In this document: piece after piece, positions 20,087 through 58,500 of the stretch
Numbering within the stretch: the stretch's first letter is position 1
Layout: the number at the start of each line of letters is the position of its first letter
Source: Verrucomicrobiales bacterium
GTDB taxonomy: Bacteria; Verrucomicrobiota; Verrucomicrobiia; Limisphaerales; F1-12-MAGs170
Reading direction: 5' to 3'
Assembly (NCBI GenBank): GCA_005777315.1
Contig: SXMN01000094.1
Span: forward strand, 1-58,500
DNA: 58,500 nt
Notes under the pieces: model-generated
What the model was told of the DNA's origin: nothing
Database searches by the model: none
Seen by the model: the letters and a program-made list of their open reading frames with translations, nothing else
Position numbers and translations under genes: made by a program

Positions 20087-20248
20087 CGGCAACTGAGGAG
20101 ACTGTGGGATAGTCTGCACACCTTGCCGGCGGCACAGGTTCATTTGCTTCATTGCTCTCTTGGACAGAGGCCGCTGCGGGCATCCTTCCGCATTCGCCCC
20201 TCGCATCTGCGGCACCCGCCATCTTTCGCAGCCTGGGCCACCGCAGCC

Positions 20249-21052
20249 TCAACAACCCGGCACTGGAATTTCGACGGTGCTTTTCGGTTTCACAAGTGGC
20301 GGCGGCTCAAATCCGAACGCTTTCAGGAATCTCTCGACTGGAGCTCTAATCCTTGTTTCGCGCCGCGTGAATGGATCGATGTAATTCAATCCCACAGCGC
20401 GAAGAGCCATCGGATACTCCAGCACTCCCTTTGCGCTCTTCGGGGGAAGTCCCGGGGCAGATCCGTACATCGGGTCTCCGACAATGGGGTGTCCGCTGGC
20501 TTGGAGATGCAGGCGAATTTGATGCGTCCGTCCGGTGAATGGGTGCGCCTCGACAAGTGTGTGTCCCGCTCGTGATTCGACGAGGCGAAACGACGTCTCT
20601 GCCTCCTTGCCCGTGCTTTCGTCCACTTTCATGCGCCCGATGCAGGCGGGGTCTGGGGCCAGATTCAACCGGATGGTCCACTCGGATTTCTTGGGCACGC
20701 CCCGCACGACAGCCAGGTACGTCTTCTCCATGCGGCGTGATTCAAACAGATCTCCGAAGGTGTTGACCCCGCCCGCGCTCTTGGCGAGCAAAAGTACGCC
20801 TGTCGTTTCCGCATCAAGGCGGTGCACGTTCCGGAGAAATTTCAGATTCCTTGAACGGGCCCAAAAATCACGAGCCTCCAGGGAGGATGCGATGGCGGCC
20901 GCGAGATTGCGGTCCGTTCGCTGCCAGTCGAACGGCACGAGCATCCACCAGGCGGGCTTGTCGATGGCCATGACGGAACGATCTTCATAAACTATTGGGA
21001 TACGCGTCAGCGAGCGGTCGCCGCGCAATTCAATGTAATCAAGTTTTGCCAA
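20249..21052 (-). CDS. RluA-family pseudouridine synthase
   Basis: IDKP, VHRLDAETTG (catalytic Asp), TGRTHQIRLH, GHPIVGDPMYG. Confidence 0.94.
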   Translation of the reverse strand: MAKLDYIELRGDRSLTRIPIVYEDRSVMAIDKPAWWMLVPFDWQRTDRNLAAAIASSLEARDFWARSRNLKFLRNVHRLDAETTGVLLLAKSAGGVNTFGDLFESRRMEKTYLAVVRGVPKKSEWTIRLNLAPDPACIGRMKVDESTGKEAETSFRLVESRAGHTLVEAHPFTGRTHQIRLHLQASGHPIVGDPMYGSAPGLPPKSAKGVLEYPMALRAVGLNYIDPFTRRETRIRAPVERFLKAFGFEPPPLVKPKSTVEIPVPGC

Positions 21053-25742: not shown

Positions 25743-25834
25743 AGGATCCTCAACAGTGTTTCAGGACTTTTCTCAAATGACATCACTGGCGATCATTGAG
25801 GAAATCGGTTCTCCGCTGTTTTCGGCTAGAGATG

Positions 25835-25893
25835 GACACCGCGCTCCAGCAGTACAGCTGGAAAGAAAGCACGAGACTATCGGCCCGTTCATG
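25835..25893 (+). repeat. Inter-module repeat, copy 1 (3' part)
   Basis: GACAC...TACAGCTGGAAAGAAAGCACGAGACTATCGGCCCGTTCATG aligns with the 3' end of the copy at 27151-27297. Confidence 0.75.
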
Positions 25894-25929
25894 TTTTCCA
25901 CCCCAGCCCCCTGGCATTGAGTCACGCGC

Positions 25930-26135
25930 TTACAAATCCGATTCCACCAGCCCGGCAATTTTCATCTGGTGTTTGAGCAGTCAATTTTCAACGGGCGATT
26001 GCCGTGAACCGGAATTACAATCCGTTCCTGATGACCTTCGTTGGTGAAAATGTGATGGCTGCCGTTGATACGTTTGAGAATCTAGCCGCGCTTTTGGATG
26101 ACGTGGATGAACTCTCTGCCGGAAACTTGTTTCAC
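25930..26135 (-). pseudogene. hicA: HicA toxin pseudogene
   Basis: Reads VKQVSGREFIHVIQKRG*ILKRINGSHHIF...IVIPVHGNRPLKI, then a frameshift to LLKHQMKIAGLVESDL*. The GSH motif is intact; TAG at 26082-26084. Confidence 0.85.
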
Positions 26136-26335
26136 ACCGTCAACTCCAACACTTCGTCGCTGGGATTGGTTTCCCTCGTCTCGTCACCGACAGAAAGTCA
26201 GAGGCCGATTGCTTCGTGTAGATTGGCTTTCGATTCGGCGAGGGTCTCGCCCTGCGTCAGGCAACCCGGCAACGCTCGAACTTCCGCCCAGTAACCGCCC
26301 TCTTCCGCCTTGTGAACAAAGGCTTTCAGCGTCAT
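26132..26335 (-). pseudogene. hicB: HicB antitoxin with premature stop
   Basis: MTLKAFVHKAEEGGYWAEVRALPGCLTQGETLAESKANLHEAIGL*LSVGDETRETNPSDEVLELTV*; internal TGA at 26198-26200; the final stop overlaps the hicA GTG (GTGA). Confidence 0.85.
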
Positions 26336-26341
26336 GGGATT

Positions 26342-26370
26342 TTTATGCGCCGAACTCGCCTGACTCTCAA
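26342..26370 (-). promoter_or_regulatory. Putative sigma70 promoter of hicBA (leaderless)
   Basis: TTGAGA-17 nt-CATAAA, 6 nt before the ATG. Confidence 0.45.
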
Positions 26371-26393
26371 GCCATGCGTTTTTGAGATTGGCT

Positions 26394-26480
26394 CTGACCT
26401 CCGTCTTCCGCTTTCTGCCTTCGGCCTTTGAAACCAGCGGGAGCACCGGCGGCGGATTGAAGGATGAGTGTGATCGGGAC
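26394..26480 (+). repeat. Heptamer tract plus inter-module repeat, copy 2 (5' part)
   Basis: CTGACCT CCGTCTT CCGCTTT CTGCCTT CGGCCTT, then TGAAACCAGCGGGAGCACCGGCGGCGGATTGAAGGATGAG. Confidence 0.8.
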
Positions 26481-26540
26481 AAGGCGCAGTCCGGCGTGGG
26501 ATCGCAGGCAAGTTCCGGAGGCGAGCGAAGTTCGGAACTG

Positions 26541-26801
26541 TTACGCAGCCAGCTCGCGTGAGCGGGGGAAGCGCCCGCACACCGCGTCGTCCACCCAGAT
26601 ATCCTCATCGAGTTCTTCCCATCGCAACGCCAACCCATGCAGCCTGAGCGTGACCTTTTCGAGTTGGGCCGGAGAGGCGTTGGCGAGCAAGGGGTACTTG
26701 CTTGCGGGGAAACTCACCTGACGTTGGTCAGCCAGTTCCAACCAGATGCGGCGATCCTGGACCCAACAACGCACGGCGGCAGTTTCTTTCTCAGTTTCCA
26801 T
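26541..26801 (-). CDS. DUF2442 family protein (putative antitoxin)
   Basis: IWLELADQRQVSFPASKYPLLANASPAQL...LRWEELDEDI; overlaps the DUF4160 gene end. Confidence 0.88.
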   Translation of the reverse strand: METEKETAAVRCWVQDRRIWLELADQRQVSFPASKYPLLANASPAQLEKVTLRLHGLALRWEELDEDIWVDDAVCGRFPRSRELAA

Positions 26802-27027
26802 GGCGCTCAATATAGGCGGCAATCAACGCTGAGCAATGCTCTTCCACGAGCCGCTGGATGCGGGTTAACTCAGCGCTCGCAAACCCGCGATTGGCCGCCA
26901 TTGCGACCGGGCGCAGCCAGAACTTGGCTTCCATGTCCTCGCGGGTCACGTGAATGTGCGGCGGCTCATTCCCCTCGCGGCTATAAAAGTGGAAGCGATA
27001 CGGGCCAATGCGCAACACGGTGGGCAT
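26791..27027 (-). CDS. DUF4160 family protein (putative toxin)
   Basis: MPTVLRIGPYRFHFYSREGNEPPHIHV...EAKFWL. Confidence 0.92.
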   Translation of the reverse strand: MPTVLRIGPYRFHFYSREGNEPPHIHVTREDMEAKFWLRPVAMAANRGFASAELTRIQRLVEEHCSALIAAYIERHGN

Positions 27028-27034
27028 GGCTTGA

Positions 27035-27063
27035 AGTGTGAGTAACGGATTTTCCAGTGTCAA
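27035..27063 (-). promoter_or_regulatory. Putative sigma70 promoter of DUF4160/DUF2442 (leaderless)
   Basis: TTGACA-17 nt-CACACT, 7 nt before the ATG. Confidence 0.55.
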
Positions 27064-27120
27064 CGCCCCCGCCGGAGCGCTGGCGGAGCGCGAAGCACGA
27101 TGTCTTGAGCAGTTTTCAAA

Positions 27121-27306
27121 TGACTTCCGACCTCTCGCCGCTGACTTCAGCCTTTGAAACCAGCGGGAGCGCTGGCGGTGGCTTGATGGCAGAGCGCGTC
27201 AGGGCTTGGCAGCAAACAGAGGAATTTCCGACTGCGGCTCGACACAGCATCGGCGATACAGTGGGAAACAAAGCACGAAACTATTGACCCGTTCATGACC
27301 CGTTCA
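27121..27306 (+). repeat. Heptamer tract plus inter-module repeat, copy 3 (full length)
   Basis: CCTTTGAAACCAGCGGGAG (27151)...AGCACGAAACTATTGAC (27288), ending in tandem TGACCCGTTCA x2. Confidence 0.85.
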
Positions 27307-27335
27307 CGGCGGTGGGCATCATGCCGCATTAACAC

Positions 27336-27364
27336 TTGCCGGTGCGTGACGGCAAATTTAGATT
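27336..27364 (+). promoter_or_regulatory. Putative sigma70 promoter of the addiction module (leaderless)
   Basis: TTGCCG-17 nt-TAGATT, 6 nt before the ATG. Confidence 0.55.
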
Positions 27365-27370
27365 CCAGCC

Positions 27371-27604
27371 ATGAGCAAAGCTAAGATTTTGCACGAATTG
27401 CCCAAGTTGGGATTGCAAGAGCGGCGCGAGATTTTTGAGCGCATCGGCGAACTGGAAGACCAGGACCTGCTCAAAGGCGGCGAACCCACGCCTGCGGACA
27501 AAGCGCTGCTTGACCGCGAATTGGAGGAATATCAGCGGAATCCTGATGCCGGTTCGACGTGGCCGGAAGTTGAATCCCGTCTCCGTAAACCAAGTCGCCC
27601 GTGA
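27371..27604 (+). CDS. Addiction module antidote protein
   Basis: LPKLGLQERREI...LLDRELEEYQRNPDAGSTWPEVESRL pattern; GTGA overlap with the toxin gene. Confidence 0.88.
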   Translation: MSKAKILHELPKLGLQERREIFERIGELEDQDLLKGGEPTPADKALLDRELEEYQRNPDAGSTWPEVESRLRKPSRP

Positions 27605-27894
27605 GTTGGCGGGTCATCATTCGGCCCAATGCCGAAGCAGACGCGCGCGAAGCCCGGCTATGGTATGAATCCCAGCGGACGGGATTGGGTGATGAACTGC
27701 TGGAGGAAATCCGGCACGCCATTCGTGTCCTGGAGGAACACCCGGACCGCCGCCCGATTTACTATCGCGGCTTTCGTCGTTTGCTCACCCGCCGTTTTCC
27801 CTACAAACTTTTCTACCGCATCGAAGGCGACCGCGTCGTTGTCTTTCGCATCCTGCACGCCAAACGGGATCATGAGTGGCAATTGGGCGATTGA
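27601..27894 (+). CDS. RelE/ParE family toxin
   Basis: AEADAREARLWYESQRTGLG, RRFPYKLFY, VVVFRILHAKR. Confidence 0.92.
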   Translation: MSWRVIIRPNAEADAREARLWYESQRTGLGDELLEEIRHAIRVLEEHPDRRPIYYRGFRRLLTRRFPYKLFYRIEGDRVVVFRILHAKRDHEWQLGD

Positions 27895-27966
27895 TTCGTC
27901 GCATCGGCGGACGATGCGGAGTCGCCGATGAACCCCGTAGGAGGCGAAGGCAACGAGGCTCAATAA

Positions 27967-28157
27967 TTTCTGCTTTCTGCTTTCTCTTTTTCGCTTTCTG
28001 CCTGCGGCCCTTGAAACCAGCGGGAGTACCGGCGACAACTTGGAAGTTGAGTGCATCAAGGCAATTCACCAAGCAGTGGAGATTTCGACCGCGGCTCAAC
28101 ACGCCGGCGGCGGTAAAGTCGGAACTTTAGCACGAAACTATTGACTGACCCGCTCAC
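27967..28157 (+). repeat. Heptamer tract plus inter-module repeat, copy 4 (full length)
   Basis: CTGCTTT heptamers, then CCCTTGAAACCAGCGGGAG (28008)...AGCACGAAACTATTGAC (28145) TGACCCGCTCAC; ungapped alignment with copy 3. Confidence 0.85.
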
Positions 28158-28188
28158 GAGGATTTTGGAGTGCGGAATTCCGCGCCCT

Positions 28189-28300
28189 CCGACCTCTGAC
28201 TTCTGCCCTCTGGCCTTCAACCTTTCATCCTCCGCAGAACTATTTTGGAGAACGGCCTGCCTGCCGCTTTCAGCCTTCGGCCTTTGAAATACCAGGAGTG
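28189..28300 (+). repeat. Heptamer tracts plus truncated repeat start, copy 5
   Basis: CCGACCT CTGACTT CTGCCCT..., then CCGCTTT CAGCCTT CGGCCTT TGAAA. Confidence 0.65.
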
Positions 28301-28330
28301 TTCGCTGAGAGTTTTGAAATCCTTTCCACA

Positions 28331-29614
28331 TCACTTTTGGTAAATGACTTCTTTGACCACATCACAGAACGCGCCGTCTTCAGCATCGTCGGCATGCTCG
28401 ACAATATAGGTAGGCTTTCCGTTTGTGAATTTGGCGGTTCCGCAGAATGCGAAGCTGGCTCTGATTGATTTCATCGTCACGAGTTCGGAAAAACCTGGTT
28501 GCCGAATGCGTAGATCACGCGTGGCAAGCAATTCCGTCATCCGCATTTCCACATGTTGGCCCCACGCGTCGGTAGTGTGAGACTTTTGATCCATGTCTTT
28601 CAATCCTACTGCGATTGCGTAAGGCTCCACTCCATGCATCCTTCCGACCCGATGATAGTATTCGCAACGGCCAGTAAATTTCTCGTCCAATAAGCACTTC
28701 AAAAAGACTTCGGTGACTTCCGTCTGATACGCGTCAACTCGAGTCGTCAGCTCGAAACACAATGCGTAACCATACTGCTCATTTGTCATTCGCTTCGGGC
28801 ACAAGGTCCATCCCTCGTCGTCGTCAGGCTCGTCCCACTCTTCCAATTCGTCTATGAATGATGGATCAAACTTCTCCCGAACCAGCCGAGCCATAATGGT
28901 TCCGTAACGTTGGAGGTAGTAATGCCACGCAACAGAGTGTTTGCTTCTTACTTCCGGGTCACGATCCTGCGCCATTGTCATGTACATCTTCTCCAAGATT
29001 TTAATCTCTCGTTTCAGCAGCAGAGCATCTGAGCCAGGAATTCGATCGAAATCCACATGAGGAACACCCTCCCAACTCAATTCGGCTAATTGGGAAATCT
29101 GAGGTGCCAACAAGACAAACTGGAGGTCTTGACTGTGGAAGACGGTTTCAAACGTTGAGTTCAGAGATAAGAGACGGGAATCCAAGAAAGTGCCAACCGA
29201 CTTGATCTGCTTTTCGCGACGATACACCTCAATCAAACCAGCACCGTAGAAGCAAGACGATTTGCCCAACTCGAAATGCTCGAATTCCCCTTGCGTAATC
29301 ACCGCTCGAAAGAATACGTCGATTGCTGAAAGGCGGTAAAACAAGTCCTGGCAGAACTCGCACAAGAACATGACAATGAATCCTTGGTTTTCCCCATCAA
29401 GTTGGCATGCGTTGTACACGACAATCGTATCCGAGAATACGATCGTTCGGAAGTCGCCGTGCTTCTGCATATTCGCAGTCGCAACAATGTGGTAGAGGGC
29501 CGGAATGACTTCTGGCCTTTTCCGAACCAGGGCAGAGAATCCCAAAATGTCGATGTAGAGCAGATATTTGGAATGGCTTTGAACTCTGTGCTTTGGCAAT
29601 TTGACTTCACTCAT
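28331..29614 (-). CDS. Class III nucleotide cyclase-like protein with unknown C-terminal domain
   Basis: YLLYIDILGFS, IVFSDTIVV, FRAVITQG and YGAGLIEVYRRE occur in the order and spacing of the adenylate/guanylate cyclase fold; ORF is solid, function inferred. Confidence 0.65.
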   Translation of the reverse strand: MSEVKLPKHRVQSHSKYLLYIDILGFSALVRKRPEVIPALYHIVATANMQKHGDFRTIVFSDTIVVYNACQLDGENQGFIVMFLCEFCQDLFYRLSAIDVFFRAVITQGEFEHFELGKSSCFYGAGLIEVYRREKQIKSVGTFLDSRLLSLNSTFETVFHSQDLQFVLLAPQISQLAELSWEGVPHVDFDRIPGSDALLLKREIKILEKMYMTMAQDRDPEVRSKHSVAWHYYLQRYGTIMARLVREKFDPSFIDELEEWDEPDDDEGWTLCPKRMTNEQYGYALCFELTTRVDAYQTEVTEVFLKCLLDEKFTGRCEYYHRVGRMHGVEPYAIAVGLKDMDQKSHTTDAWGQHVEMRMTELLATRDLRIRQPGFSELVTMKSIRASFAFCGTAKFTNGKPTYIVEHADDAEDGAFCDVVKEVIYQK

Positions 29615-29689
29615 GGTGACGGGCTTACACAACCCAAAGTCGGCGAGCAAGTCTATGGGGGCTCGTGAACTCTTTCATTTTCCGCCAGC

Positions 29690-30361
29690 ATGAACCCGCG
29701 CGACGATTCTGCGATCATTCGGCACCCGACAGGTGGGGTCGCCAAAGTCAAACAGGGCACAAAGCGAATCTTGTCCGATCTGGTCAGGGATATTCTCTCG
29801 ATTGCGCAGGAAAAATCTCAGACTCAAAGTCTGCCGGCAACTTCATCACATACCGACGCTGATTTGGAAAGCTGGTACTGGAAGGGAGAGGCACACTACT
29901 ATGGCACCGGTGTGCCAAAAGATTACGTTGAAGCTGTGAAGTGCTACCGCAACGCAGCGGAACGGGGGCATGCGCACGCGCAGTTCAGGTTGGGGGTGTG
30001 CTATTCAGGAGGTGAAGGCGTTCTGCAGGATCACGCACAAGCCGTCAACTGGTATCGCAAGGCAGCAGAGCAAGGTTACGCCGACGCTCAGAACAACTTG
30101 GGCCACTGCTACTACGACGGGTGCGACGGTGTTCCCGTAGATAAGGAAGAAGGCCTGCGATGGCTAAGCAAATCGGCCGAGAATGGTTGTGTACTAGCTT
30201 GTATCACATTGGACACTTTTTGGAAATCGGGCCTAATCGATTCAAAAGATCATGAAAAAGTTTTGCATTGGCTCCGTAGAGCAATCGAGAAGGGAGATTC
30301 AATCGCTGTTGCCTTTTATCCGGAATTAAAAGCAAACCTTTCAGAGCTGCCACCCAAATGA
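29690..30361 (+). CDS. Sel1-like repeat protein
   Basis: Three clear SLRs (GTGVPKDYVEAVKCYRNAAERGHAHAQFRLG; GVLQDHAQAVNWYRKAAEQGYADAQNNLG; GVPVDKEEGLRWLSKSAENG). Confidence 0.92.
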   Translation: MNPRDDSAIIRHPTGGVAKVKQGTKRILSDLVRDILSIAQEKSQTQSLPATSSHTDADLESWYWKGEAHYYGTGVPKDYVEAVKCYRNAAERGHAHAQFRLGVCYSGGEGVLQDHAQAVNWYRKAAEQGYADAQNNLGHCYYDGCDGVPVDKEEGLRWLSKSAENGCVLACITLDTFWKSGLIDSKDHEKVLHWLRRAIEKGDSIAVAFYPELKANLSELPPK

Positions 30362-32013
30362 ACAAAGCGAGCTGGATTCTTTTGGACACGGAAACGACCG
30401 GGTTCTCCGCGCCGATTTTCGTCGTTGAGTTGTGCGCACAACGGATGCGCGGCTGGCAGCCTGACGGCGAACCATTCCGCAAGTTGCTGAATCAAAATCA
30501 GGAGATTCCCGCCGAGGCTTCGCGCGTTCACGGTTACACGCGTGAAATTCTGGAGCGCGACGGCGAACCGGCGCATCAGGTTTATCGGGAGTTTGCCGAA
30601 TACGCGGGCGGGCTGCCGCTCGTCTCGTTCAATCTCGAATATGACCTGGACGAAGTGTTGCAGCCGGAGTGGAAGCGGCTGGGCATCGGCGCGATTGGCA
30701 GTCGCGGGTTTTGCGCCCTGCGGCTGGCGCAGCGGCTGCTCGATCCCGTGCCCGCTGGCAACTGCAAGCTGCAAACGCTGCGGCAGTATTATCGCCTGCC
30801 CGAACGCGGCGCGCACACGGCGCTGGGCGACGTGCAAACGGTCGCGGACTTGATGGCGCAGGTGCTTCGCCCGATTGCCGGGCATCGCGGGTTAGATACG
30901 TGGGAAAAGCTGGTCGCGTTTGCGGCGGAAGAATGGTTTCCGTCCCGCATCGCTTTCGGGAAGCACAAGGGACGGTTGATTCAAGAGGCCCGCAAGGACG
31001 CGGAGTTGCGCGGCTGGCTGGACTGGCTGGCCAAATCCGCCAACGCCCGCAACGCGAAGATGGGTCGCTGGTATTTGCGACAACTGGAAATGGCATCCGC
31101 GCCACCGGACACAACGGTGTTTGCCGCGCCGGAAATCGAGCGCGAATCCAAACGCGGCGTCGCAACGCAAACCGGCCACGTCGGGCTGGTCATTTACATC
31201 AATCCAGAGTTGGAGCAATTGCGGCAGTTGGTGGCGGGCGCACGGGCGCGGCTGGCGGAATTGGGAGTCAATTTCACGAAGGAGAAATCACGCGTGGATG
31301 TCATGCAGGCGGTGTTGTTCCGGCAATTGCGCGGGCATTATCAGCAGCGCGACCGGCTGCGGCTCATCGTGGACTACCGGCGGAAGTTTTTGGATTCGCT
31401 GGTGCGCGGCGGCGAGGAGGATGCGAAACAGGCGGAAGCGAATTACGAGCAGGCGAAATCGCAGACTGACAAGGATTACGAGGAGACGGCGGCAGCGGTG
31501 GCGGAGAAGAAACAACTCACCGCCGACGAGGAGGCGGAACTGTCGCGGCTGTGGAAGAAGCTGGTGAAGTTGTATCACCCCGACCGCTTCGCGCACGAGC
31601 CGGACAAGCTCGAGACGTATCACAAGCTGACCGCCGCCATCAACGAGGCGAAGGACGCGGGCGACATCCAGACGCTGCGGGAGATCGCGGAAGACCCGCA
31701 CGGTTTCATCCTGCGCCAGGGCTGGGCGACGCTCGATTTCAGCGACGCGGCGGAACTCGCGCAGTTGCGGCGTCTGCATGAGACGTTGCAACTGGAAATC
31801 ATCGCCGTGCTCGAAGCGCTGAATCGCCTGCGGGAAAGTCCCGATTACGAGCTTTGCCAGTTGAGCGAAAAGAAACCGGGCTTGCTGGATGAACTGGCGG
31901 CGAAAAGAAAGCAACTGCTGGAAAAGGAAAGCAGGGAGTTGGAGGAACAGGCGGACAAGCTGGCGGAGGAAATCAAGGAATTATCCGACGAGGAAACTTC
32001 GCGGATTCTTTAG
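30358..32013 (+). CDS. DEDDh 3'-5' exonuclease fused to coiled coil and J-domain
   Basis: LDTETTG, FNLEYD and AHTALGDV exonuclease motifs; IAFGKHKG motif; WKKLVKLYHPDRF J-domain HPD; ATGA overlap with the Sel1 gene. Confidence 0.9.
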   Translation: MNKASWILLDTETTGFSAPIFVVELCAQRMRGWQPDGEPFRKLLNQNQEIPAEASRVHGYTREILERDGEPAHQVYREFAEYAGGLPLVSFNLEYDLDEVLQPEWKRLGIGAIGSRGFCALRLAQRLLDPVPAGNCKLQTLRQYYRLPERGAHTALGDVQTVADLMAQVLRPIAGHRGLDTWEKLVAFAAEEWFPSRIAFGKHKGRLIQEARKDAELRGWLDWLAKSANARNAKMGRWYLRQLEMASAPPDTTVFAAPEIERESKRGVATQTGHVGLVIYINPELEQLRQLVAGARARLAELGVNFTKEKSRVDVMQAVLFRQLRGHYQQRDRLRLIVDYRRKFLDSLVRGGEEDAKQAEANYEQAKSQTDKDYEETAAAVAEKKQLTADEEAELSRLWKKLVKLYHPDRFAHEPDKLETYHKLTAAINEAKDAGDIQTLREIAEDPHGFILRQGWATLDFSDAAELAQLRRLHETLQLEIIAVLEALNRLRESPDYELCQLSEKKPGLLDELAAKRKQLLEKESRELEEQADKLAEEIKELSDEETSRIL

Positions 32014-32149
32014 CCGTAACGATTCGATAGGAGCGTAGAGTTCATTCCGCCGCAACGCGCGACCACTGCTAGAAACAAGGGCTGGAATTGAGAGTCTGCT
32101 GGCAACATGTGGCGTTGATCCGGACTGATAGCGTTACACATGGTTCAAA

Positions 32150-52303: not shown

Positions 52304-55006
52304 ATGGCCACGCGTGAGTCTTCAAATTCTGGATGCTACATGAAGAGTTGCTTCGTGCTCTTCCTTCTCTCCGGCGCGGCCGGGCTCGGTTACCAGACGA
52401 TCTGGACGCGTCTGTTCACCAATGCGCTTGGGCACGAAGTCCCGGCGATGCTTGCTGTGGTGGCTGCGTTTTTCGGTGGACTGACGCTTGGGGGCTGGCT
52501 GGGAGATTTTCTCACAAGCCGGCTCAAACTGGCTGGGGCGCTCTATCTTTGGTTGGAGTTGATCATTGGTTGCTGGGCGTTGGTGACAATGAGCATGGTC
52601 CCCGTGGTGGACGCTCTCGGAGCTGGACTGATTGGCGATGAGCCTTCTCTCGTGCGGCATTGGCTCACGGCCTTCGTGGTTCCGTTGATCGTTTTGCTTC
52701 CTGCCACCTGCGCGATGGGAGCAACCTGGCCGTCGATGATCCGTTTTGCCACGCAAATGCTCGGAGATAAGAGTATTGTTGGAACACTCTACGCGGCGAA
52801 CACGGTTGGGGCTTTGGCAGGTGTAGGCTTCTCGACGTTTATGATATTGCCCAGATTGGGCTTTCGTTCGTCTTTGATGGTCTTTGCATTCGTCAATTTT
52901 GTCTGTGCAGCCGGAGCGTGGTGGTTGGTGCGTCGTTCAAATAATGAGGCGGATCGCATCGGGAAGCTGGCATCGAGTGGCATTGGGAAAAATCTGGCCG
53001 CAGCTTCTGGCAGACTGACTGGCTTGAGACACGACCGGGGCATTGGTTTTGAACGAGGAGATTTGCCCGGAGAGCAAGCAAGGAAAGGCATCGGCGGACG
53101 ATCTTCTATGGCGCTCCTTTTGATGTCAGGGTTCACGGGGTTTCTGGGCATCGGTTGGGAAATTGTGTCGATTCGAGTCCTCGCCAGCGTTTTGGAAAAC
53201 ACGGTCTATACGTTCGCCTCAGCCTTGATGGTCTATCTGCTGGGCACGGCAACAGGCGCCGCGTTTTACCAGAATCGGTGCCTGAAGGTAGAGCCTTTGA
53301 AGCTGGAGAAAATCTTGTTTCTTGGGCTGGCTCTGACCTGCGTGCTGGGAATGATTCCTTTGATGTTTGCCCGCGGTATTTACGATTTCGTGCGCAGCAT
53401 TCTTGGATTGTCCGTCGCAAGTGGGATTGCCGCGGAAGTTTTTGTGGAAGCATTGGTGTTGGCTGGCCCAGCCTGCTTGATGGGCGCATTGTTCGCGCAC
53501 CTGGTTCAACAAGCTGCCAACAAAGGTACCTGGGTGGGAAGTGCTACCGCGGCTAATACATTCGGATGTGCGCTGGCGCCGTTTGCATTTGGTGTCCTGC
53601 TGATTCCCCTGGTCGGTTTCAAGTGGTCTCTTCTGGGATTGGTGACGGGTTATCTGCTACTGGCTTGCATCCACCTCCGCGCAAATTGGCGGGCGTTGAT
53701 CCTTCTGCCGAGCCTCATCGGCTTGCTCCTGCCGCGCCATCTTCAAGCACCATCGTTGCCGCCGGGCGGGGCGTTAATGAGCTATCACGAGGGTAGAATG
53801 GATTCCGTGGCCGTCATCCGTTATGCGGATGGCAATCGCAGTCTTGTGGTCAATAATCGCTTTGCGATGGGAGGGACTGGAGCAGCGCTTGCCGAGAGGC
53901 GCCACGCCCATATCCCCCTGTCGCTGCACCCGGCGCCGAAACGCGCTTTGTTTCTTGGACTTGGCACAGGCATCACCTTTGCCGCCAGCGCGGCCCACCC
54001 CGGACTCCGTGCGGACGGTGTTGAGCTGTTGCCTGAAGTCGTGGAAGCCGGCGGTTTGTTTTCTCCAGAGAATTCTACAGGCAACGCGGGCGAGCGGTTG
54101 AAGATCCATGTCGCGGATGCACGTCGATTCGTTCGCGCCACAACCAACCGGTATGATGTGGTGGTCGCCGATCTGTTCCATCCATCGCGTGACGGAGCCG
54201 GCCTGCTCTACACGCTGGAACACTTCACGGCGATCCGTTCAGTTCTGGAGGCGGAAGGAACATTCTGCCAATGGCTTCCCCTGTATCAACTCGACGAAGA
54301 CGTCCTGAAAACCATCATTCGGACATTTCTTGAAGTGTTTCCCAACACGAGTGCCTGGTTGCTGCGTTACAATATAGACACTCCCGTGCTTGGGCTGATG
54401 GGAACGAAAGAACCGCGGACTTATCCGCCCGACTACCTGGAGCAACGGGTCATTGACGAAGCGTTGCTTACCGCGCTAAAGAGCGTCCAGCTTCGGAATA
54501 CTCTGGAATTATTCGGTGGATTTCTCGGAAACACGGATGCGATTCGCCGCTTCGCGGGTGGCGGATCCCTGAACTCCGATGATCATCCCATTGTGCTCTT
54601 CAGGGCGCCGTCATGGAGCTACGGCCCGAGACGGCCAGCTCATGAGCGATTATCACTCGTAATCCGAAACTTCACACCGAGTCCGGCATCGCTGGTCAAT
54701 GGCACGGACCATCGGAAAATCTCATTCGTTTCCGAGTTGGGCGATTTTATGTCGGCGCGTGATGTTTACATACAGGGTTTGGTACATGAATCGAATGGGC
54801 TGGAACTTGCGGCTGTGAAAGCTTTCGTGGAAAGCGCCCGGCGCAGCACCAACTTCACGCTGGGCTATGCACATGCTTTGACGTGGGCCCGACAGAACTG
54901 GGAAGTCAATCGAGTCCAGGCCAAGTCAGTTTTGGAGGAACTCGATCAGACTCAACCTGGGCGTGGAGTGGCGAGGCGCATGTTGGAGCAGTTGGAGAAA
55001 CAATAG
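52304..55006 (+). CDS. Fused MFS-like/spermidine synthase-like SAM-binding membrane protein
   Basis: LSGAAGLGYQ, LYAANTVGA, many TMs, then LFLGLGTG, VELLPEV, ADARRFV, YDVVVADLFHP, CQWLP. Confidence 0.92.
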   Translation: MATRESSNSGCYMKSCFVLFLLSGAAGLGYQTIWTRLFTNALGHEVPAMLAVVAAFFGGLTLGGWLGDFLTSRLKLAGALYLWLELIIGCWALVTMSMVPVVDALGAGLIGDEPSLVRHWLTAFVVPLIVLLPATCAMGATWPSMIRFATQMLGDKSIVGTLYAANTVGALAGVGFSTFMILPRLGFRSSLMVFAFVNFVCAAGAWWLVRRSNNEADRIGKLASSGIGKNLAAASGRLTGLRHDRGIGFERGDLPGEQARKGIGGRSSMALLLMSGFTGFLGIGWEIVSIRVLASVLENTVYTFASALMVYLLGTATGAAFYQNRCLKVEPLKLEKILFLGLALTCVLGMIPLMFARGIYDFVRSILGLSVASGIAAEVFVEALVLAGPACLMGALFAHLVQQAANKGTWVGSATAANTFGCALAPFAFGVLLIPLVGFKWSLLGLVTGYLLLACIHLRANWRALILLPSLIGLLLPRHLQAPSLPPGGALMSYHEGRMDSVAVIRYADGNRSLVVNNRFAMGGTGAALAERRHAHIPLSLHPAPKRALFLGLGTGITFAASAAHPGLRADGVELLPEVVEAGGLFSPENSTGNAGERLKIHVADARRFVRATTNRYDVVVADLFHPSRDGAGLLYTLEHFTAIRSVLEAEGTFCQWLPLYQLDEDVLKTIIRTFLEVFPNTSAWLLRYNIDTPVLGLMGTKEPRTYPPDYLEQRVIDEALLTALKSVQLRNTLELFGGFLGNTDAIRRFAGGGSLNSDDHPIVLFRAPSWSYGPRRPAHERLSLVIRNFTPSPASLVNGTDHRKISFVSELGDFMSARDVYIQGLVHESNGLELAAVKAFVESARRSTNFTLGYAHALTWARQNWEVNRVQAKSVLEELDQTQPGRGVARRMLEQLEKQ

Positions 55007-55133
55007 TTGGGAAGCTTGTCCACCGGATTATTGAGCCCGACTTCCTGCGGGAAAAAGGTGTCCGCGAAAACAGTTGAATTCAGGTCGTGGCTTTCTACTA
55101 TGCGGCCCGCGTGGATTCCCACGCACGATTGGT

Positions 55134-55210
55134 CGGGACGTAGCGTAGCTTGGTAGCGCGTCTGAATGGGGTTCAGAAGGTCGTGAGTTCAAATCTCACC
55201 GTCCCGACCA
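55134..55210 (+). tRNA. tRNA-Pro(GGG)
   Basis: Acceptor stem CGGGACG/CGTCCCG, anticodon arm TCTGA-ATGGGGT-TCAGA, T-arm GTGAG-TTCAAAT-CTCAC, encoded CCA. Confidence 0.97.
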
Positions 55211-55282
55211 TCTTTATTTTCTTCCTTTACAAGGGTTTACATCTGATTTTCTGCTTGTGGTTTTGGGGCATTTCGCTTGACC

Positions 55283-55303
55283 CGTCCTAGCGAACGTCCT
55301 AGC
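55283..55303 (+). repeat. 9-bp direct repeat, candidate integrase arm-type sites
   Basis: CGTCCTAGC-GAA-CGTCCTAGC between the tRNA and int, just after TTGACC. Confidence 0.55.
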
Positions 55304-55314
55304 CCAGAGTTATT

Positions 55315-56481
55315 ATGAAACCGAGGAAGAAGGACTGGATCAAGGCAACACGACGGAACGGTCATGCGATCCCAAAACTTTGGATCCGATCCAGCGGCAC
55401 TTTCTACGCCCAAATGGCCGTGCTCGATGAGTCCACCGGCAAGAATGTCACTAAGAAAATCTGCTTGAACACCCGAGACATCAAAGTGGCTCAAGAGAAA
55501 CTTGCAGGGTTGGTTTCAAAACGATCCGAAGGCGAACTTAAACTCCGTGACGACGGCCCCGTTTTTGAAGATTTCTTGCCTCATTTTTTGGAGATTAGAA
55601 AGCAGGAACGAGGCATCAAGACGTTTCAAAACGAGAAATGCTTCCTCGGTCAGTTCCTGGAGTTTACCGGAACCAAGAGATTGGGAGAAATCACGGTTCG
55701 TGACATCCTGAATTACCGGACCAAAATTCTAAAGGGCAAAGTCACCCCTCACACTGCCAATTTGAATGTCACTGCGATCCGTAACCTTTTCAAGCAGGCG
55801 ATTGCTGAAGGTTTGATAGATGAGAATCCGGCGTTGAAGGTCTTAATGCTGGATCACGTTCCCAAGCGGAAATCACTTCTCACCGACGATCAAATTGCTT
55901 TGCTGGCCAAGACGGCAAGAGAGGTTCTTCCGATGGCAGGTCAACAAGTCTCTGATTGGATTCTTGTCATGGCGTACTGCGGGGGAAGAATGAGCGAAGT
56001 CCTAAGTCTCGAGTGGAGTGACATTGATTTTGACGAGCGGAAATTAACCTTCCGTCGTGAGACGGTGAAGTTTAAGTCCAAATCTCGTTCAGTTGATTTC
56101 AATCTGAAGCTGGAGGCACAACTGAAGGACATGTTGGCTCGTCGTGATCAACAATCGGAATGGCTGTTCCCATCCACGAGAGCGGCAGGAATGAGGGTTG
56201 GGGAATACGGTCACGACTTGGCGAAAGTCACGAAGAAGGCGGGGCTGTCTAAAGTCACGAGCCATTTCTTCCGACATTACTTTATCACCACTTGTGCCAA
56301 AGCCGCAGTTGCAATGAAGCTGGTGATCGATTGGGTGGGACACAAGGACTATCAGATGGTCAACGAAGTTTACACCCACCTCCCAAAAGAATTCGGGCAA
56401 AGTGAGGCCAAAAAACTTACTTTTCACACCGAGCCCCAAAAACCCAAAGTCAACAAATACGTGGGGAAGTTCTTCACGTAA
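55315..56481 (+). CDS. Tyrosine recombinase/integrase
   Basis: GGRMSEVLSLEWSDIDF (R), HFFRH (HxxR), VGH, VYTH (catalytic Tyr). Confidence 0.95.
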   Translation: MKPRKKDWIKATRRNGHAIPKLWIRSSGTFYAQMAVLDESTGKNVTKKICLNTRDIKVAQEKLAGLVSKRSEGELKLRDDGPVFEDFLPHFLEIRKQERGIKTFQNEKCFLGQFLEFTGTKRLGEITVRDILNYRTKILKGKVTPHTANLNVTAIRNLFKQAIAEGLIDENPALKVLMLDHVPKRKSLLTDDQIALLAKTAREVLPMAGQQVSDWILVMAYCGGRMSEVLSLEWSDIDFDERKLTFRRETVKFKSKSRSVDFNLKLEAQLKDMLARRDQQSEWLFPSTRAAGMRVGEYGHDLAKVTKKAGLSKVTSHFFRHYFITTCAKAAVAMKLVIDWVGHKDYQMVNEVYTHLPKEFGQSEAKKLTFHTEPQKPKVNKYVGKFFT

Positions 56482-56582
56482 ACCATAGACCTGAGCCCCA
56501 CCAGCTCCCGCCACTGGATACTTGGGAAAACTCTAATTATCCCACCAATTGGGATTTAGTTTCAAGTGGGTGATCCGAGCAC

Positions 56583-56768
56583 TTATTCCAGCAACCGCAT
56601 CACTTGATTTCCACGTCCAAAGAATCCGTGCATGGTGTGGGTCGTGTCCGCCGCCTTAAAATAATAGCCCAACATTCTGCCGGCCCTGTCGAAAATTTGG
56701 ATCTGCGTCGAGTTCTCCATCGTCCAACCGATCACGGAGTTCGTCCGGTCAAAAATGTTCTTTTTCAT
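56583..56768 (-). CDS. Small hypothetical beta-rich protein
   Basis: 61 aa with repeated IFDR...(I/L)G motif; closely follows the phosphatase gene. Confidence 0.5.
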   Translation of the reverse strand: MKKNIFDRTNSVIGWTMENSTQIQIFDRAGRMLGYYFKAADTTHTMHGFFGRGNQVMRLLE

Positions 56769-56779
56769 GCTACTCAATT

Positions 56780-57301
56780 CTACATTTGGATGTGCTGTCC
56801 AAGTTGCTCTTTCAATTTCTGAATTAGTGCTGGTTCCATCGCTCGGTAAATGTCTGGAATTGATAAAGTGATTACCTTTTTGCCCTCAAGAAACTGTCCG
56901 AATTTTTGCCTAACAGTCTGCTCATGCTCCAACTCCATGGCGAAAATCATATCCGCCCACTCAATCATATCTTGGCTCACCACCTTACGGGCCGTGTCTT
57001 CGGTACCAGCGGATGCAACTTCGTATGCCGCACAATCAACGAGAATACGCTCGGCAGTTAGACTTCGCCGCCAGTTTTGGGAGCATACAAAGAGTAATTT
57101 GAGTTTAGTGGACTGGGGGAGAATTTTTCGATTTTGCGTTGTGTCACGGGCTCTCGCTGCCATCTGTCGTTCATCCTCCGTCGCAGAAGGATTGTTGGCG
57201 GCGAGTGAAAACCAAGCATACGCTTCTGCATAGTCCGTCGGCAGCCCTGTGCCATAGTAGGATAAACCAAGAGCGAAATCTTTGAGTGACTGATCTTTCA
57301 T
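56780..57301 (-). CDS. Sel1 repeat fused to low-molecular-weight phosphatase-like domain
   Basis: GTGLPTDYAEAYAWFSLAA, then LFVCSQNWRRSLTAE (CX5R), SAGT, WADMIFAME, LSIPD. Confidence 0.85.
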   Translation of the reverse strand: MKDQSLKDFALGLSYYGTGLPTDYAEAYAWFSLAANNPSATEDERQMAARARDTTQNRKILPQSTKLKLLFVCSQNWRRSLTAERILVDCAAYEVASAGTEDTARKVVSQDMIEWADMIFAMELEHEQTVRQKFGQFLEGKKVITLSIPDIYRAMEPALIQKLKEQLGQHIQM

Positions 57302-57333
57302 GAGTGGCGGTGTGGAAAGACTTTACACATGCT

Positions 57334-57999
57334 TCAAGTTGTTGACTCACGAGCGAGAACCCTTCGGATTTGGGTGAATTGCCACCGACCGCCTGAACGA
57401 GTTGTGATCCCTTCGGAATTCAACCGTTCAGCAATCTCGCTGATTGTCAGACTTTCATTTCTGAGATGTTTAATTCTGGCGACAATCTCAGATTCTCCCA
57501 CTTTGGTTCCGTAGGGCTTTTGCCCCTCACAACGTCCGTTTTTCGCTTTGGAACGGACTCTGGCGGCTCGGAGCTTTTGAACGATGCAGGATTTTTCCCA
57601 CTCTGACACCACACCCAGAATTTGACGGATCATCTTCCGGCTCGGGTCGTCATTGTCCACCGTCAGATCGGTGCCCCCCTCAGCTGCGATGACTTTGATT
57701 CCCAGTTTTCTAAATTCTGCCAACAGCGTTTCCGAAACAATCAGATCACGGGCAAGTCTGTCAGCTTTCTCAACGAGGACCACTTTGACGCCATCAGCTT
57801 TGATTGCGACAAAGAGCTCGGTCAAGCCGGGCCGGTCGAAGACCGTGCCGGAAATCCCCTCATCTCGAAATTCGCCGACAATCTCCATTTTGCTTCGGCG
57901 ACCATAATCTGCGACAGATTGTCGTTGTCGTGGGAAACCGTCACCGTCCACCTGTCCTTTGCCAGAAACCCTCAAGTAGGTGTAAACCTTTGTTTTCAT
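57334..57999 (-). CDS. Serine recombinase (resolvase family)
   Basis: YLRVS (catalytic Ser), DRPGL, DRLARD, C-terminal IAERLNSEGITTRSGGRW helix-turn-helix. Confidence 0.94.
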   Translation of the reverse strand: MKTKVYTYLRVSGKGQVDGDGFPRQRQSVADYGRRSKMEIVGEFRDEGISGTVFDRPGLTELFVAIKADGVKVVLVEKADRLARDLIVSETLLAEFRKLGIKVIAAEGGTDLTVDNDDPSRKMIRQILGVVSEWEKSCIVQKLRAARVRSKAKNGRCEGQKPYGTKVGESEIVARIKHLRNESLTISEIAERLNSEGITTRSGGRWQFTQIRRVLARESTT

Positions 58000-58500
58000 G
58001 GTGGACAAATCCTAGCAATTTGAGCTCCCGTCAAGCACTCAATCTTCGGAATAAGTGCTTAATCATAGGCAACTTACACATTGTCAACAACATGCCTGGA
58101 ATTGAGTTATTTCGACCTGGTTTTGATCGGTTAGGAGGCCCAAAAACAACAAAATGCCAAGGACGATAATTTGAAGGAAGGGATCACCGTGACAACGACA
58201 AGAGATCAATCAAGTTCGATTGATTACTGAGGGGCTGAACCTAAAAGCTGTAAGAAGTTCCGACGTTCTTGCGTAATATTACTCAAGCGGTTGAATTACA
58301 ATGGAATACGACTGCGATGGCATTGTGCCCCCCCCCTCAAAAGCTAGAAAGCCTTTACAGTAGAGGCTCTTTCAAAACTCGGATTTGTTGAGAGATTTCA
58401 ATTGATCATGTGAAGTGGCACGAGTCGCGCTGATTTTTGGACATGCTCGACCTGACGACGATCTTCCACAATTTGCAACGCCATCTTTTCCCCATGCTCG

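Follow-up and report, generated by a model that had tools for sequence, protein, structure and literature searches.

Class III nucleotidyl cyclases (PF00211) are recognised by a cyclase homology domain (CHD) that carries two metal-binding Asp residues, one at the end of strand β1 and one, within a GD pair, in the β2-β3 hairpin, as well as a G..VN.A.R motif at the opening of helix α4. In the Pycsar systems, a cyclase of this fold (PycC) is paired with a cyclic nucleoside monophosphate (cNMP)-binding effector, PycTM or PycTIR. Modular one-gene defence proteins follow another plan and pair a constant sensor with swapped effectors, as in ThsA (SIR2 or a transmembrane part with SLOG) and in the SAVED and CARF fusions. 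Two divergent members of the CHD fold are also on record: the DUF2652 family (PF10851), whose accessible description depicts single-domain proteins of ~250 aa with a predicted class III fold, both Asp residues and the Arg kept, and an Ile in place of the Asn (PMC4886424), and AdvA of Acinetobacter baumannii, presented in the accessible text on it as a membrane-anchored core division protein (PMC13060281). Here, we analysed a gene lying within positions 1 to 58,500 of contig SXMN01000094.1 from a Verrucomicrobiales bacterium, a 58,500-nucleotide stretch that we call the window. We tentatively propose, with a probability of about 0.4, that the product of this focal gene is a self-contained, one-gene conflict or defence enzyme that uses nucleoside triphosphates (NTPs) and acts as an output rather than as a signal generator, with its C-terminal domain gating the activity.

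The focal open reading frame (ORF) is listed at 28331..29650 on the minus strand (439 aa with a TTG start). We took the ATG at 29614 as the start because the closest full-length homologue, P0002, aligns from residue 1, the two proteins being 53% identical end to end (100% coverage); the resulting ORF is intact and ends with a stop codon at 28331-28333 (Table 1). The protein contains no secretion signal and, in agreement with the initial annotation, no transmembrane segment (maximum 19-residue Kyte-Doolittle mean, 1.29), and it matches nothing in Pfam (E ≤ 10), PADLOC 2.0 (E ≤ 1), or NCBIfam (E ≤ 1). An AlphaFold2 model of the full-length protein was obtained from an alignment of 60 sequences, namely the window protein and 59 of the 120 listed homologues (mean predicted local distance difference test [pLDDT], 87.8; predicted template modeling score [pTM], 0.72). 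When this model was compared by VIA-align with 48,161 representative chains, the best match was CyaB of Pseudomonas aeruginosa (3r5g_B; Z 16.4; root mean square deviation, 2.6 Å; 160 aligned residues; model residues 9 to 172), with nine further class III cyclases at Z 15.8 to 14.2, the ten together spanning residues 4 to 176. Pycsar cyclases scored lower (7r65, Z 12.6; 8jsf, 12.1; 8jsz, 11.7), as did the noncatalytic AdvA (7sua, Z 10.6). Foldseek returned 157 matches in the PDB at E ≤ 1e-3, headed by human soluble adenylyl cyclase (1.4e-8) and by cyclase domains of bacteria and eukaryotes with target-normalised template modeling scores of 0.54 to 0.62. These matches support the description of the protein as an atypical class III cyclase-like enzyme in the initial annotation, in that its N-terminal half is predicted to have the class III nucleotidyl-cyclase fold. 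A palm domain of the GGDEF, Cas10, or mCpol kind was considered and rejected, the hairpin reading FSDT and not GG[DE]EF or GGDD and the scores of GGDEF domains (Z ≤ 9.8) and of Cmr2 (Z 8.5) standing against 16.4 for the cyclases.

Sequence profiles were also compared. Local greedy hhalign of the family against 32 PF00211 domains from related genomes gave a collinear alignment over 155 columns (E 0.011; probability, 3.8%), an alignment with the three PF00211 domains of the own genome was confined to the β1 motif (E 0.037; probability, 1.4%), and the global mode of hhalign against PF00211 domains yielded nothing usable. A search of the PDB with the family profile gave chance matches only (E 0.75), and the nearest named clusters in the ESM Atlas, to be taken as leads only, were PF00211 (0.89) and DUF2652 (0.88). 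A two-copy prediction of the N-terminal domain (residues 1 to 265), aimed at the head-to-tail dimer with shared active sites that class III cyclases form, scored 0.32 against a mark of 0.42, a value that speaks neither for nor against a dimer.

The conservation pattern suggests that the predicted fold houses a working metal site. Residues L19, Y20, I21, D22, L24, G25, F26, F60, S61, D62, T63, F102, R103, F111, G124, L127, and K225 are invariant in all 60 sequences, and the nearly invariant ones include N68, E86, R94, H113, E134, and W260. DILGF (residues 22 to 26) and FSDT (residues 60 to 63) had been proposed from the outset to supply the two metal-binding Asp positions, and the invariance of D22 and D62 and their collinearity with the canonical Asp residues agree with this proposal; in the model, D62 lies in a hairpin formed by strands E55-60 and E63-68. 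Likewise, R103 aligns with the Arg of the R.G.H.G motif in the hhalign comparison with the 32 PF00211 domains, and G124 precedes a helix (residues 125 to 136), as the Gly of G..VN.A.R does. The remaining canonical positions are altered in the way that the initial annotation had indicated, with Ile128 of GAGLIEVYR in the Asn position and SD in place of GD in the hairpin. Throughout the family, the position of the transition-state Asn (+4) is occupied by Ile or Val and GD reads SD, while that of the transition-state Arg (+8), R132 in the focal protein, is R, L, Q, H, or D; in an alternative hhalign register, the Asn and Arg positions are likewise unconserved. A conserved Lys/Asp or Glu/Cys base-specifying pair was not recognised at the motif-equivalent positions, which were mapped by register and not by superposition. 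Several invariant or nearly invariant polar residues fall outside the canonical set (S61, T63, N68, E86, H113, E134, and K225), the last of them in a two-helix hairpin behind the core whose helices, H197-216 and H220-246, are modeled at pLDDT 95 to 98. As far as the model and the alignment can tell, the two-metal center looks alive, and the remainder of the canonical cyclisation machinery looks replaced.

Behind the acidic linker EEWDEPDDDE (residues 258 to 267) follow 160 further residues (268 to 427). The initial annotation could not assign this domain, and it has remained without an assignment in Pfam, Foldseek, and VIA-align. Modeled alone with nine homologues (pLDDT 83.8; pTM 0.83), it forms a ferredoxin-like α/β domain with the layout β-α-β-β-α-β-α-β-β-α. 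Neither the PDB nor BFVD yielded a Foldseek match at E ≤ 1e-3, and no VIA-align chain reached Z ≥ 8; the top VIA-align rows were HUH domains of parvoviral NS1/Rep proteins (Z 7.8, 6.4, and 6.3) and assorted ferredoxin-like domains, an arrangement that the tool itself treats as common. We rejected a Rep/NS1-type HUH nuclease, as the best score (3wrn_A, Z 7.8) lies in the chance-arrangement range of the tool and no HUH motif is conserved, the candidate strand reading VEHAD in the window type and being unconserved at that position in the second family described below. Resemblance to ACT or PII-like domains was limited to subthreshold Foldseek rows (NikR, SbtB, GlnK2, and CutA; E 0.02 to 0.05), and ACT domains scored VIA-align Z ≤ 5.6.

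The C-terminal domain is shared with proteins of another kind. A profile of this domain retrieved, from a set of 5.8 billion proteins, eight proteins of at least 302 aa, all of the long cyclase-like type, and no protein of 88 to 301 aa. A DNA-pattern scan of metagenome contigs, the sole route that led to the second family, yielded 26 loci encoding relatives of the domain. One of these (L085) is a long cyclase-like form, 20 encode proteins of ~290 to 330 aa in which the domain follows a different N-terminal domain of ~135 aa (four of them, L101 and L103 to L105, being interrupted by stop codons), and five (L096, L099, L107, L109, and L110) carry the domain alone or behind another N terminus. 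A profile made from the second family only retrieved residues 276 to 424 of the window protein at E 4.4e-24, and the reverse matches ranged from 1e-19 to 1e-28 in a small database; the invariants common to both domains include F.GRCE.Y, a WW pair, and an SE pair. By these profile comparisons, homology between the C-terminal domains of the focal protein and of the second family is solid. The second single-gene family itself, found at L086 to L098, L100 to L106, and L108, appears to be undescribed and bears the N-domain motif FVAMKF...D.TG.S.NVSYE.GY.HG. Weak leads suggest that this N-terminal domain could be TIR- or deoxyribosyltransferase-like: TIR_2 matched one of 14 proteins at E 0.0097, DNPH1/Rcl matched at E 0.24 to 1 with an alignment across the YELG motif, and Atlas clusters with TIR or Nuc_deoxyrib_tr lay at 0.84 to 0.87. 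The third N terminus, at L099, has no Pfam match and displays a D...QxK pattern by eye. Around members of the second family, we found a DUF1156 methylase with an SNF2 helicase and a WCX domain, Schlafen/AlbA_2, DUF4357, YgjP, and unrelated genes. A two-gene system composed of a cyclase-like gene and a gene for a TIR-like protein with the C-terminal domain was examined and dismissed, since no cyclase-like gene occurs at the 25 loci of the second kind and no C-terminal domain at the genome loci. A further lead to the TIR-like nature of the second N-terminal domain is an ORF without the C-terminal domain at L072 (Hansschlegelia; 20162-20752, minus strand), ~10 kb from the cyclase-fold gene, which matches both the TIR-effector model of PADLOC (1.5e-9) and the N-domain part of the second-family profile (3.6e-8).

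To judge from its homologues, the focal protein is a rare long form within a larger family of stand-alone proteins of ~270 aa. A word-indexed search listed 127 relatives at E ≤ 1e-3, and phmmer, run exhaustively over 1.84 billion cluster representatives, identified 251 clusters (147 at 1e-10 and 57 at 1e-30); none of the relatives contains a Pfam domain, and "hypothetical protein" is their sole name. The whole query is covered by only six listed proteins (P0002 to P0007; 431 to 450 aa), and nearly all other listed relatives have 245 to 313 aa, mostly ~270, and match the first ~260 residues, a span that includes the two-helix hairpin. There is also a third architecture of 384 to 398 aa, whose ~120-aa domain behind the shared core shows conserved A..G, CG.A, and Q positions, has no Pfam match, and is unrelated to the focal C-terminal domain (P0043, P0115, P0097, P0120, P0132, P0141, P0154, P0168, P0185, P0187, P0192, P0197, and P0200). 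In a pattern scan of one genome per species across 185,579 species, 106 relatives were confirmed and 80 loci retained, in Pseudomonadota, Bacteroidota, Acidobacteriota, Verrucomicrobiota, Planctomycetota, Nitrospirota, Bacillota, and other phyla. A family member, of the short form, occurs in one of 40 genomes of the same order, while ordinary PF00211 cyclases are present in 30 of the 31 genomes searched, including the own genome, which carries three canonical ones elsewhere. In viral collections, 13 loci of IMG/VR carry a family gene, several of them a few kilobases from the ends of provirus contigs; the phage and plasmid collections gave one weak partial match each, and PHROG 23933 (function not assigned) is a distant relative of the cyclase-fold family. 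We found no description of this family in the literature that we searched, including the main text of two defence-discovery papers whose supplements could list it.

The focal gene is a horizontally acquired accessory gene. The genome G001, from the same genus (66% complete), is collinear with the window on its contig C194 at 85 to 89% identity up to ~25745 and again from ~32140, and it contains ~60 bp where the window has a 6.4-kb islet. The lower GC content announced for the gene is also apparent, at 0.485 versus 0.561 in the window as a whole and 0.575 and 0.589 in the two flanks, and GC at third codon positions is 0.568 versus 0.63 to 0.70 in housekeeping neighbors. Three toxin-antitoxin-type modules stand in a row within the islet (26198-27894), which lacks an integrase and in which gene orientations are mixed. 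The absence of an adjacent cNMP-binding effector, pointed out in the initial annotation, holds for the 18 neighboring ORFs of the window scanned with Pfam, none of which encodes a cNMP-binding domain.

The surroundings of relatives were examined at 78 loci at which the focal gene was recovered by ORF calling (L004 and L056 being dropped from the 80). Blastp clustering of up to four ORFs per side revealed no conserved partner, the largest cluster of nonfocal neighbors comprising six loci at scattered positions. An upstream ORF on the same strand is present in 56 of 77 loci, with a gap below 50 bp in 23, and these ORFs are mutually unrelated (largest cluster, three loci). The 149 immediate neighbors were scanned with Pfam and PADLOC (E ≤ 1e-5). 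Pfam identified AbiEi, Abi_C (2), HEPN_AbiU2, DUF4238 (3), HsdR, Eco57I/MmeI, a C5 methylase, REase-ARP, GmrSD, OLD/AAA_15 (2), UvrD, PIN, HNH, DUF4062, integrases, a transposase, TerL, and a phage cement protein; by Pfam and PADLOC names together, the immediate neighbors include AbiJ/Abi_C (two loci), AbiU2, GajA (2), GajB, type I and IIG restriction enzymes, GmrSD/HEC-05, and HEC-09. By our own classification, ~24 of the 78 loci have a neighbor of defence or mobile type. Relatives of the focal gene stand alone, with a moderate excess of defence and mobile neighbors, and the contexts that PADLOC and the neighborhoods of homologues were meant to expose are variable, often of the defence or mobile kind, and not conserved housekeeping operons. 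Three apparent counterparts of window genes were set aside: the Sel1 gene behind the homologue in L039 resembles that of the window at the repeat level only; the DnaJ neighbor of L051 has only the J motif in common with the window gene; and the PDC-S48-like neighbor of L054 is unrelated.

In the reading that we favor, the core would be a catalytically active nucleotidyltransferase of the two-metal type that works alone on an NTP, either depleting NTPs or producing a nucleotide that arrests growth or carries a signal. The enzyme would form the output of a one-gene conflict module, of the anti-phage or abortive-infection type, and not a Pycsar-like generator of signals, and the ferredoxin-like C-terminal domain may be an exchangeable regulatory or sensor module that gates it. 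The domain looks exchangeable because other single-gene proteins carry it behind a TIR/deoxyribosyltransferase-like domain or behind at least one further N-terminal domain. The literature that we searched contains no description of class III-type cyclase domains in an effector role, be it NTP drainage or NTP conversion.

A number of observations weigh against this proposal. Pfam reports nothing for the protein even at E ≤ 10, and since the sequence link to PF00211 is not significant, the cyclase assignment rests on predicted structure; residue equivalences were drawn from motif and secondary-structure register, not from superposition. Changes in the active site may also mean less than they seem to, since, in the accessible text of PMC4886424, Rv1900c is active with a His for the Asn and DUF2652 has Ile there as our family does, so that loss of the Asn alone does not exclude ordinary cyclase activity. 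Conversely, AdvA (PDB 7SUA), which according to the accessible text of PMC13060281 combines a CHD-like fold with a lack of catalytic residues and of activity, implies that such a fold alone is no guarantee of catalysis. The C-terminal domain is not essential to the function of the core, because most family members lack it, and its sensor role is suggested by analogy. The initial annotation placed the gene in a defence-like island; a small acquired islet is indeed there, and what it holds are toxin-antitoxin modules and one PADLOC candidate (PDC-S48), with no established defence system, the PADLOC matches elsewhere in the window being generic. Among relatives, many neighbors are ordinary (PheT, GyrB, ManC, a GlmU-like gene, LysR, LacI, and peptidase S41). 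PADLOC matched 27 of 149 adjacent ORFs versus 11 of 149 at distances above 8 kb (odds ratio, 2.8; Fisher p 0.0085), which is an excess of only 2.4-fold that includes generic matches (HTH, OmpA, and Sel1) and compares adjacent ORFs from 78 loci with distant ORFs from the 40 loci with full flanks, the distant set itself including real defence genes.

The fold and the two metal-binding Asp residues would equally be present in an ordinary second-messenger synthase, that is, a divergent 3',5'-cNMP cyclase or a GGDEF/mCpol-like enzyme joining two NTPs, whose receptor is encoded elsewhere and whose C-terminal domain provides ACT/PII-type allosteric control. This explanation can call on the Asn-less cyclases that are active and on the same Asn-to-Ile change in DUF2652, as given in the accessible text of PMC4886424, on the proximity of the PF00211 and DUF2652 clusters in the Atlas, and on the weak fold neighbors of the C-terminal domain, which include the ACT-like part of NikR, PII-like SbtB with cAMP, and GlnK; every one of these C-domain matches, however, is below significance. 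We consider such a synthase rather unlikely, given that no receptor or effector is linked to the gene in the 78 loci, that the spread is very patchy even within the order, in a genome already equipped with three canonical cyclases, and that on our reading the expected motif positions lack a conserved base-specifying Lys/Asp or Glu/Cys pair. A less probable explanation still is that mobile elements carry the gene as toxin-like or addiction cargo, or that it encodes an enzyme of interbacterial conflict, and that it is kept because it stabilises the islet or harms competitors, without an anti-phage role. Its position among three toxin-antitoxin-type modules (ParE with its antitoxin, DUF4160/DUF2442, and the HicB-like fragment) fits this idea, as do the integrases, transposases, and prophage genes common beside homologues and the frequent, in part closely spaced upstream ORF on the same strand. 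Nevertheless, these upstream ORFs are not mutually homologous, and there is therefore no conserved antitoxin; the window copy has no small upstream ORF at all, and the protein has neither a secretion signal nor a transmembrane segment.

Finally, the protein could be a noncatalytic CHD-like scaffold or a nucleotide-binding regulator. AdvA offers the example, being CHD-like without cyclase or NTPase activity according to the accessible text of PMC13060281 and matching our model at Z 10.6, and the Asn and Arg are missing in the focal family. We hold this to be improbable: the metal-binding Asp residues, the adjacent Ser and Thr, and R103 do not vary across the 60 sequences, as is typical of an active site that still works, whereas AdvA, in the same accessible text, lacks the catalytic residues, and active cyclases fit the model far better (Z 16.4 versus 10.6). 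The one-gene output enzyme remains the reading that we prefer. A bolder extension of it, which we regard as unlikely at present, is that the C-terminal domain with its F.GRCE.Y motif is the founding member of a new kind of exchangeable sensor domain in one-gene immune proteins, gating interchangeable outputs that attack nucleotides, with the cyclase fold serving as an effector that drains or converts NTPs. The outputs would then be a CHD-fold nucleotidyltransferase in the focal protein, a TIR/deoxyribosyltransferase-like domain in the sister family, and the unassigned domain of L099.

Should the core prove active, Pfam, NCBIfam, and PADLOC 2.0 would have missed a family of CHD-fold enzymes with at least 250 sequence clusters that horizontal transfer has spread across many phyla, and the chemistry or the use of the cyclase fold would extend beyond Pycsar-type signalling; with an inactive core, or one that is no more than a signalling cyclase, this is an ordinary divergent family. 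The common C-terminal domain provides a handle for experiments, as one small domain is coupled to two or three nucleotide-directed enzymes. The occurrence of one small domain on several enzymes is a pattern that has repeatedly led to new immune sensors and ligands.

Other features of the islet are listed in Table 1. The Sel1-repeat and DEDDh exonuclease-J-domain genes look like an operon because they overlap by 4 nt. The product of the latter has a DEDDh (RNase T/DnaQ-like) N-terminal half and a coiled-coil-rich C-terminal half with an HPD motif (LYHPDRF). A scan of positions 27900-29800 for promoters and terminators detected one promoter-like site, versus 1.3 expected, and zero terminators, and Rfam gave no match on the islet at E ≤ 1.

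Table 1. Positions of the focal gene, its parts, and the surrounding islet within the window
Feature	Position	Strand	Remarks
6.4-kb variable islet with focal gene	25745..32140	.	Collinearity break versus same-genus genome G001
Islet repeat copies	25853-25893, 26393-26470, 27119-27297, 27976-28160, 28193-28289		
HicB/UPF0150-like fragment	~26198-26335	-	Toxin-antitoxin-type module of islet
DUF2442 with DUF4160	26541-27063	-	Toxin-antitoxin-type module of islet
77-aa antitoxin-like ORF with ParE	27371-27894	+	Toxin-antitoxin-type module of islet
Whole coding sequence of focal gene	28331..29614	-	427 aa + stop; long form of unnamed cyclase-fold family
Ferredoxin-like α/β C-terminal domain, residues 268-427	28334..28813	-	Invariant motif F.GRCE.Y; matches no known family
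Acidic linker EEWDEPDDDE, residues 258-267	28814..28843	-	Model of low confidence here: pLDDT 53, residues 265-267 <50
Two-helix hairpin after core, residues 197-246, with invariant K225	28877..29026	-	Conserved; also in short 270-aa forms
Predicted CHD-like catalytic core, residues 9-172	29099..29590	-	VIA-align to CyaB 3r5g_B; Foldseek class III cyclases
GAGLIEVYR, residues 124-132, start of helix α4	29219..29245	-	Putative counterpart of G..VN.A.R; Ile128 at Asn position
Codon of D62 (FSDT), putative second metal-binding Asp, β2-β3 hairpin	29429..29431	-	60/60; low-confidence hhalign pairs it with the GD Asp
Codon of D22 (YIDILGF), putative first metal-binding Asp, end of β1	29549..29551	-	60/60; aligns with Asp of PF00211 F.DI.GFT
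Divergent intergenic region, 75 bp, focal gene/Sel1-repeat gene	29615..29689	.	Without consensus promoter
Sel1-repeat gene	29690-30361	+	Divergent from focal gene
DEDDh exonuclease-J-domain gene, 551 aa	30358-32013	+	PADLOC DEDDh 7e-23, candidate PDC-S48 6e-14

The cassettes of the islet are interspersed with copies of a repeat of up to ~190 nt that are 72 to 93% identical to one another; a partial copy is located just within the left edge, and another closely follows the focal gene on its downstream side. In the own genome, the repeat is confined to the islet (three places by blastn), it has no Rfam match, and it could mark recombination joints between cassettes. An integron-like cassette origin of these repeats was also considered; as noted above, the islet has no integrase and its gene orientations are mixed. 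Elsewhere in the window, a stretch of ~140 nt (20092-20234) recurs at more than 20 places on many G001 contigs at 76 to 83% identity and looks like a dispersed short repeat of the lineage. GC also falls to 0.476 to 0.508 in positions 55000-58000, directly after a tRNA-Pro gene (55134-55210), and this region, with ORFs at 55315-56481 (+), 56780-57301 (-), and 57334-58008 (-) that have no PADLOC match, may be a second acquired islet at a tRNA.

How, then, does the focal protein compare with described systems? It has in common with DUF2652, the "nucleotide cyclase-like proteins" of Ramakrishnan et al. 2016, both Asp residues and the Ile for Asn, and differs in that DUF2652, in the accessible text (PMC4886424), keeps the Arg and the focal family does not. 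Identity with DUF2652 was examined and rejected, as PF10851 misses the focal protein and, in five genomes that carry family members, gives only matches of E ≥ 0.13 at other places. With AdvA, as portrayed in the accessible part of PMC13060281, the focal protein shares a divergent CHD-like fold, extra C-terminal helices, and the lack of a Pfam cyclase signature, but the focal family keeps the Asp pair and is soluble and accessory, whereas AdvA lacks catalytic residues. Class III cyclases such as CyaB (3r5g), CyaC of Spirulina (1wc1), and Rv1625c of Mycobacterium tuberculosis (7yzi) have the same predicted fold over ~160 residues (Z 16.4 to 14.2), and their two Asp residues, the Arg of the β4 motif, and the Gly opening helix α4 all appear to be kept; in contrast, the focal family has no PF00211 profile match, SD for GD, Ile or Val for Asn, an unconserved Arg, and no recognised base-specifying pair, adds a conserved two-helix hairpin with an invariant Lys, lacks the usual sensor and transmembrane domains, and is represented here by an accessory gene rather than by core signalling. 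Pycsar resembles the focal system in having a CHD-fold enzyme in defence-type neighborhoods, and its cyclases 7r65, 8jsf, and 8jsz match structurally. However, canonical class III cyclases fit better than these do, and since the focal protein has no PADLOC match and no effector, neither next to it in the window nor as a conserved neighbor in the 78 loci, the focal system is not Pycsar. As for ThsA and the SAVED and CARF fusions, none of their sensor folds was matched by the focal C-terminal domain in the fold searches that we ran, and the likeness lies in the architecture: here, the C-terminal domain is the constant part, and the N-terminal domain is cyclase-like, TIR/deoxyribosyltransferase-like, or of another kind.

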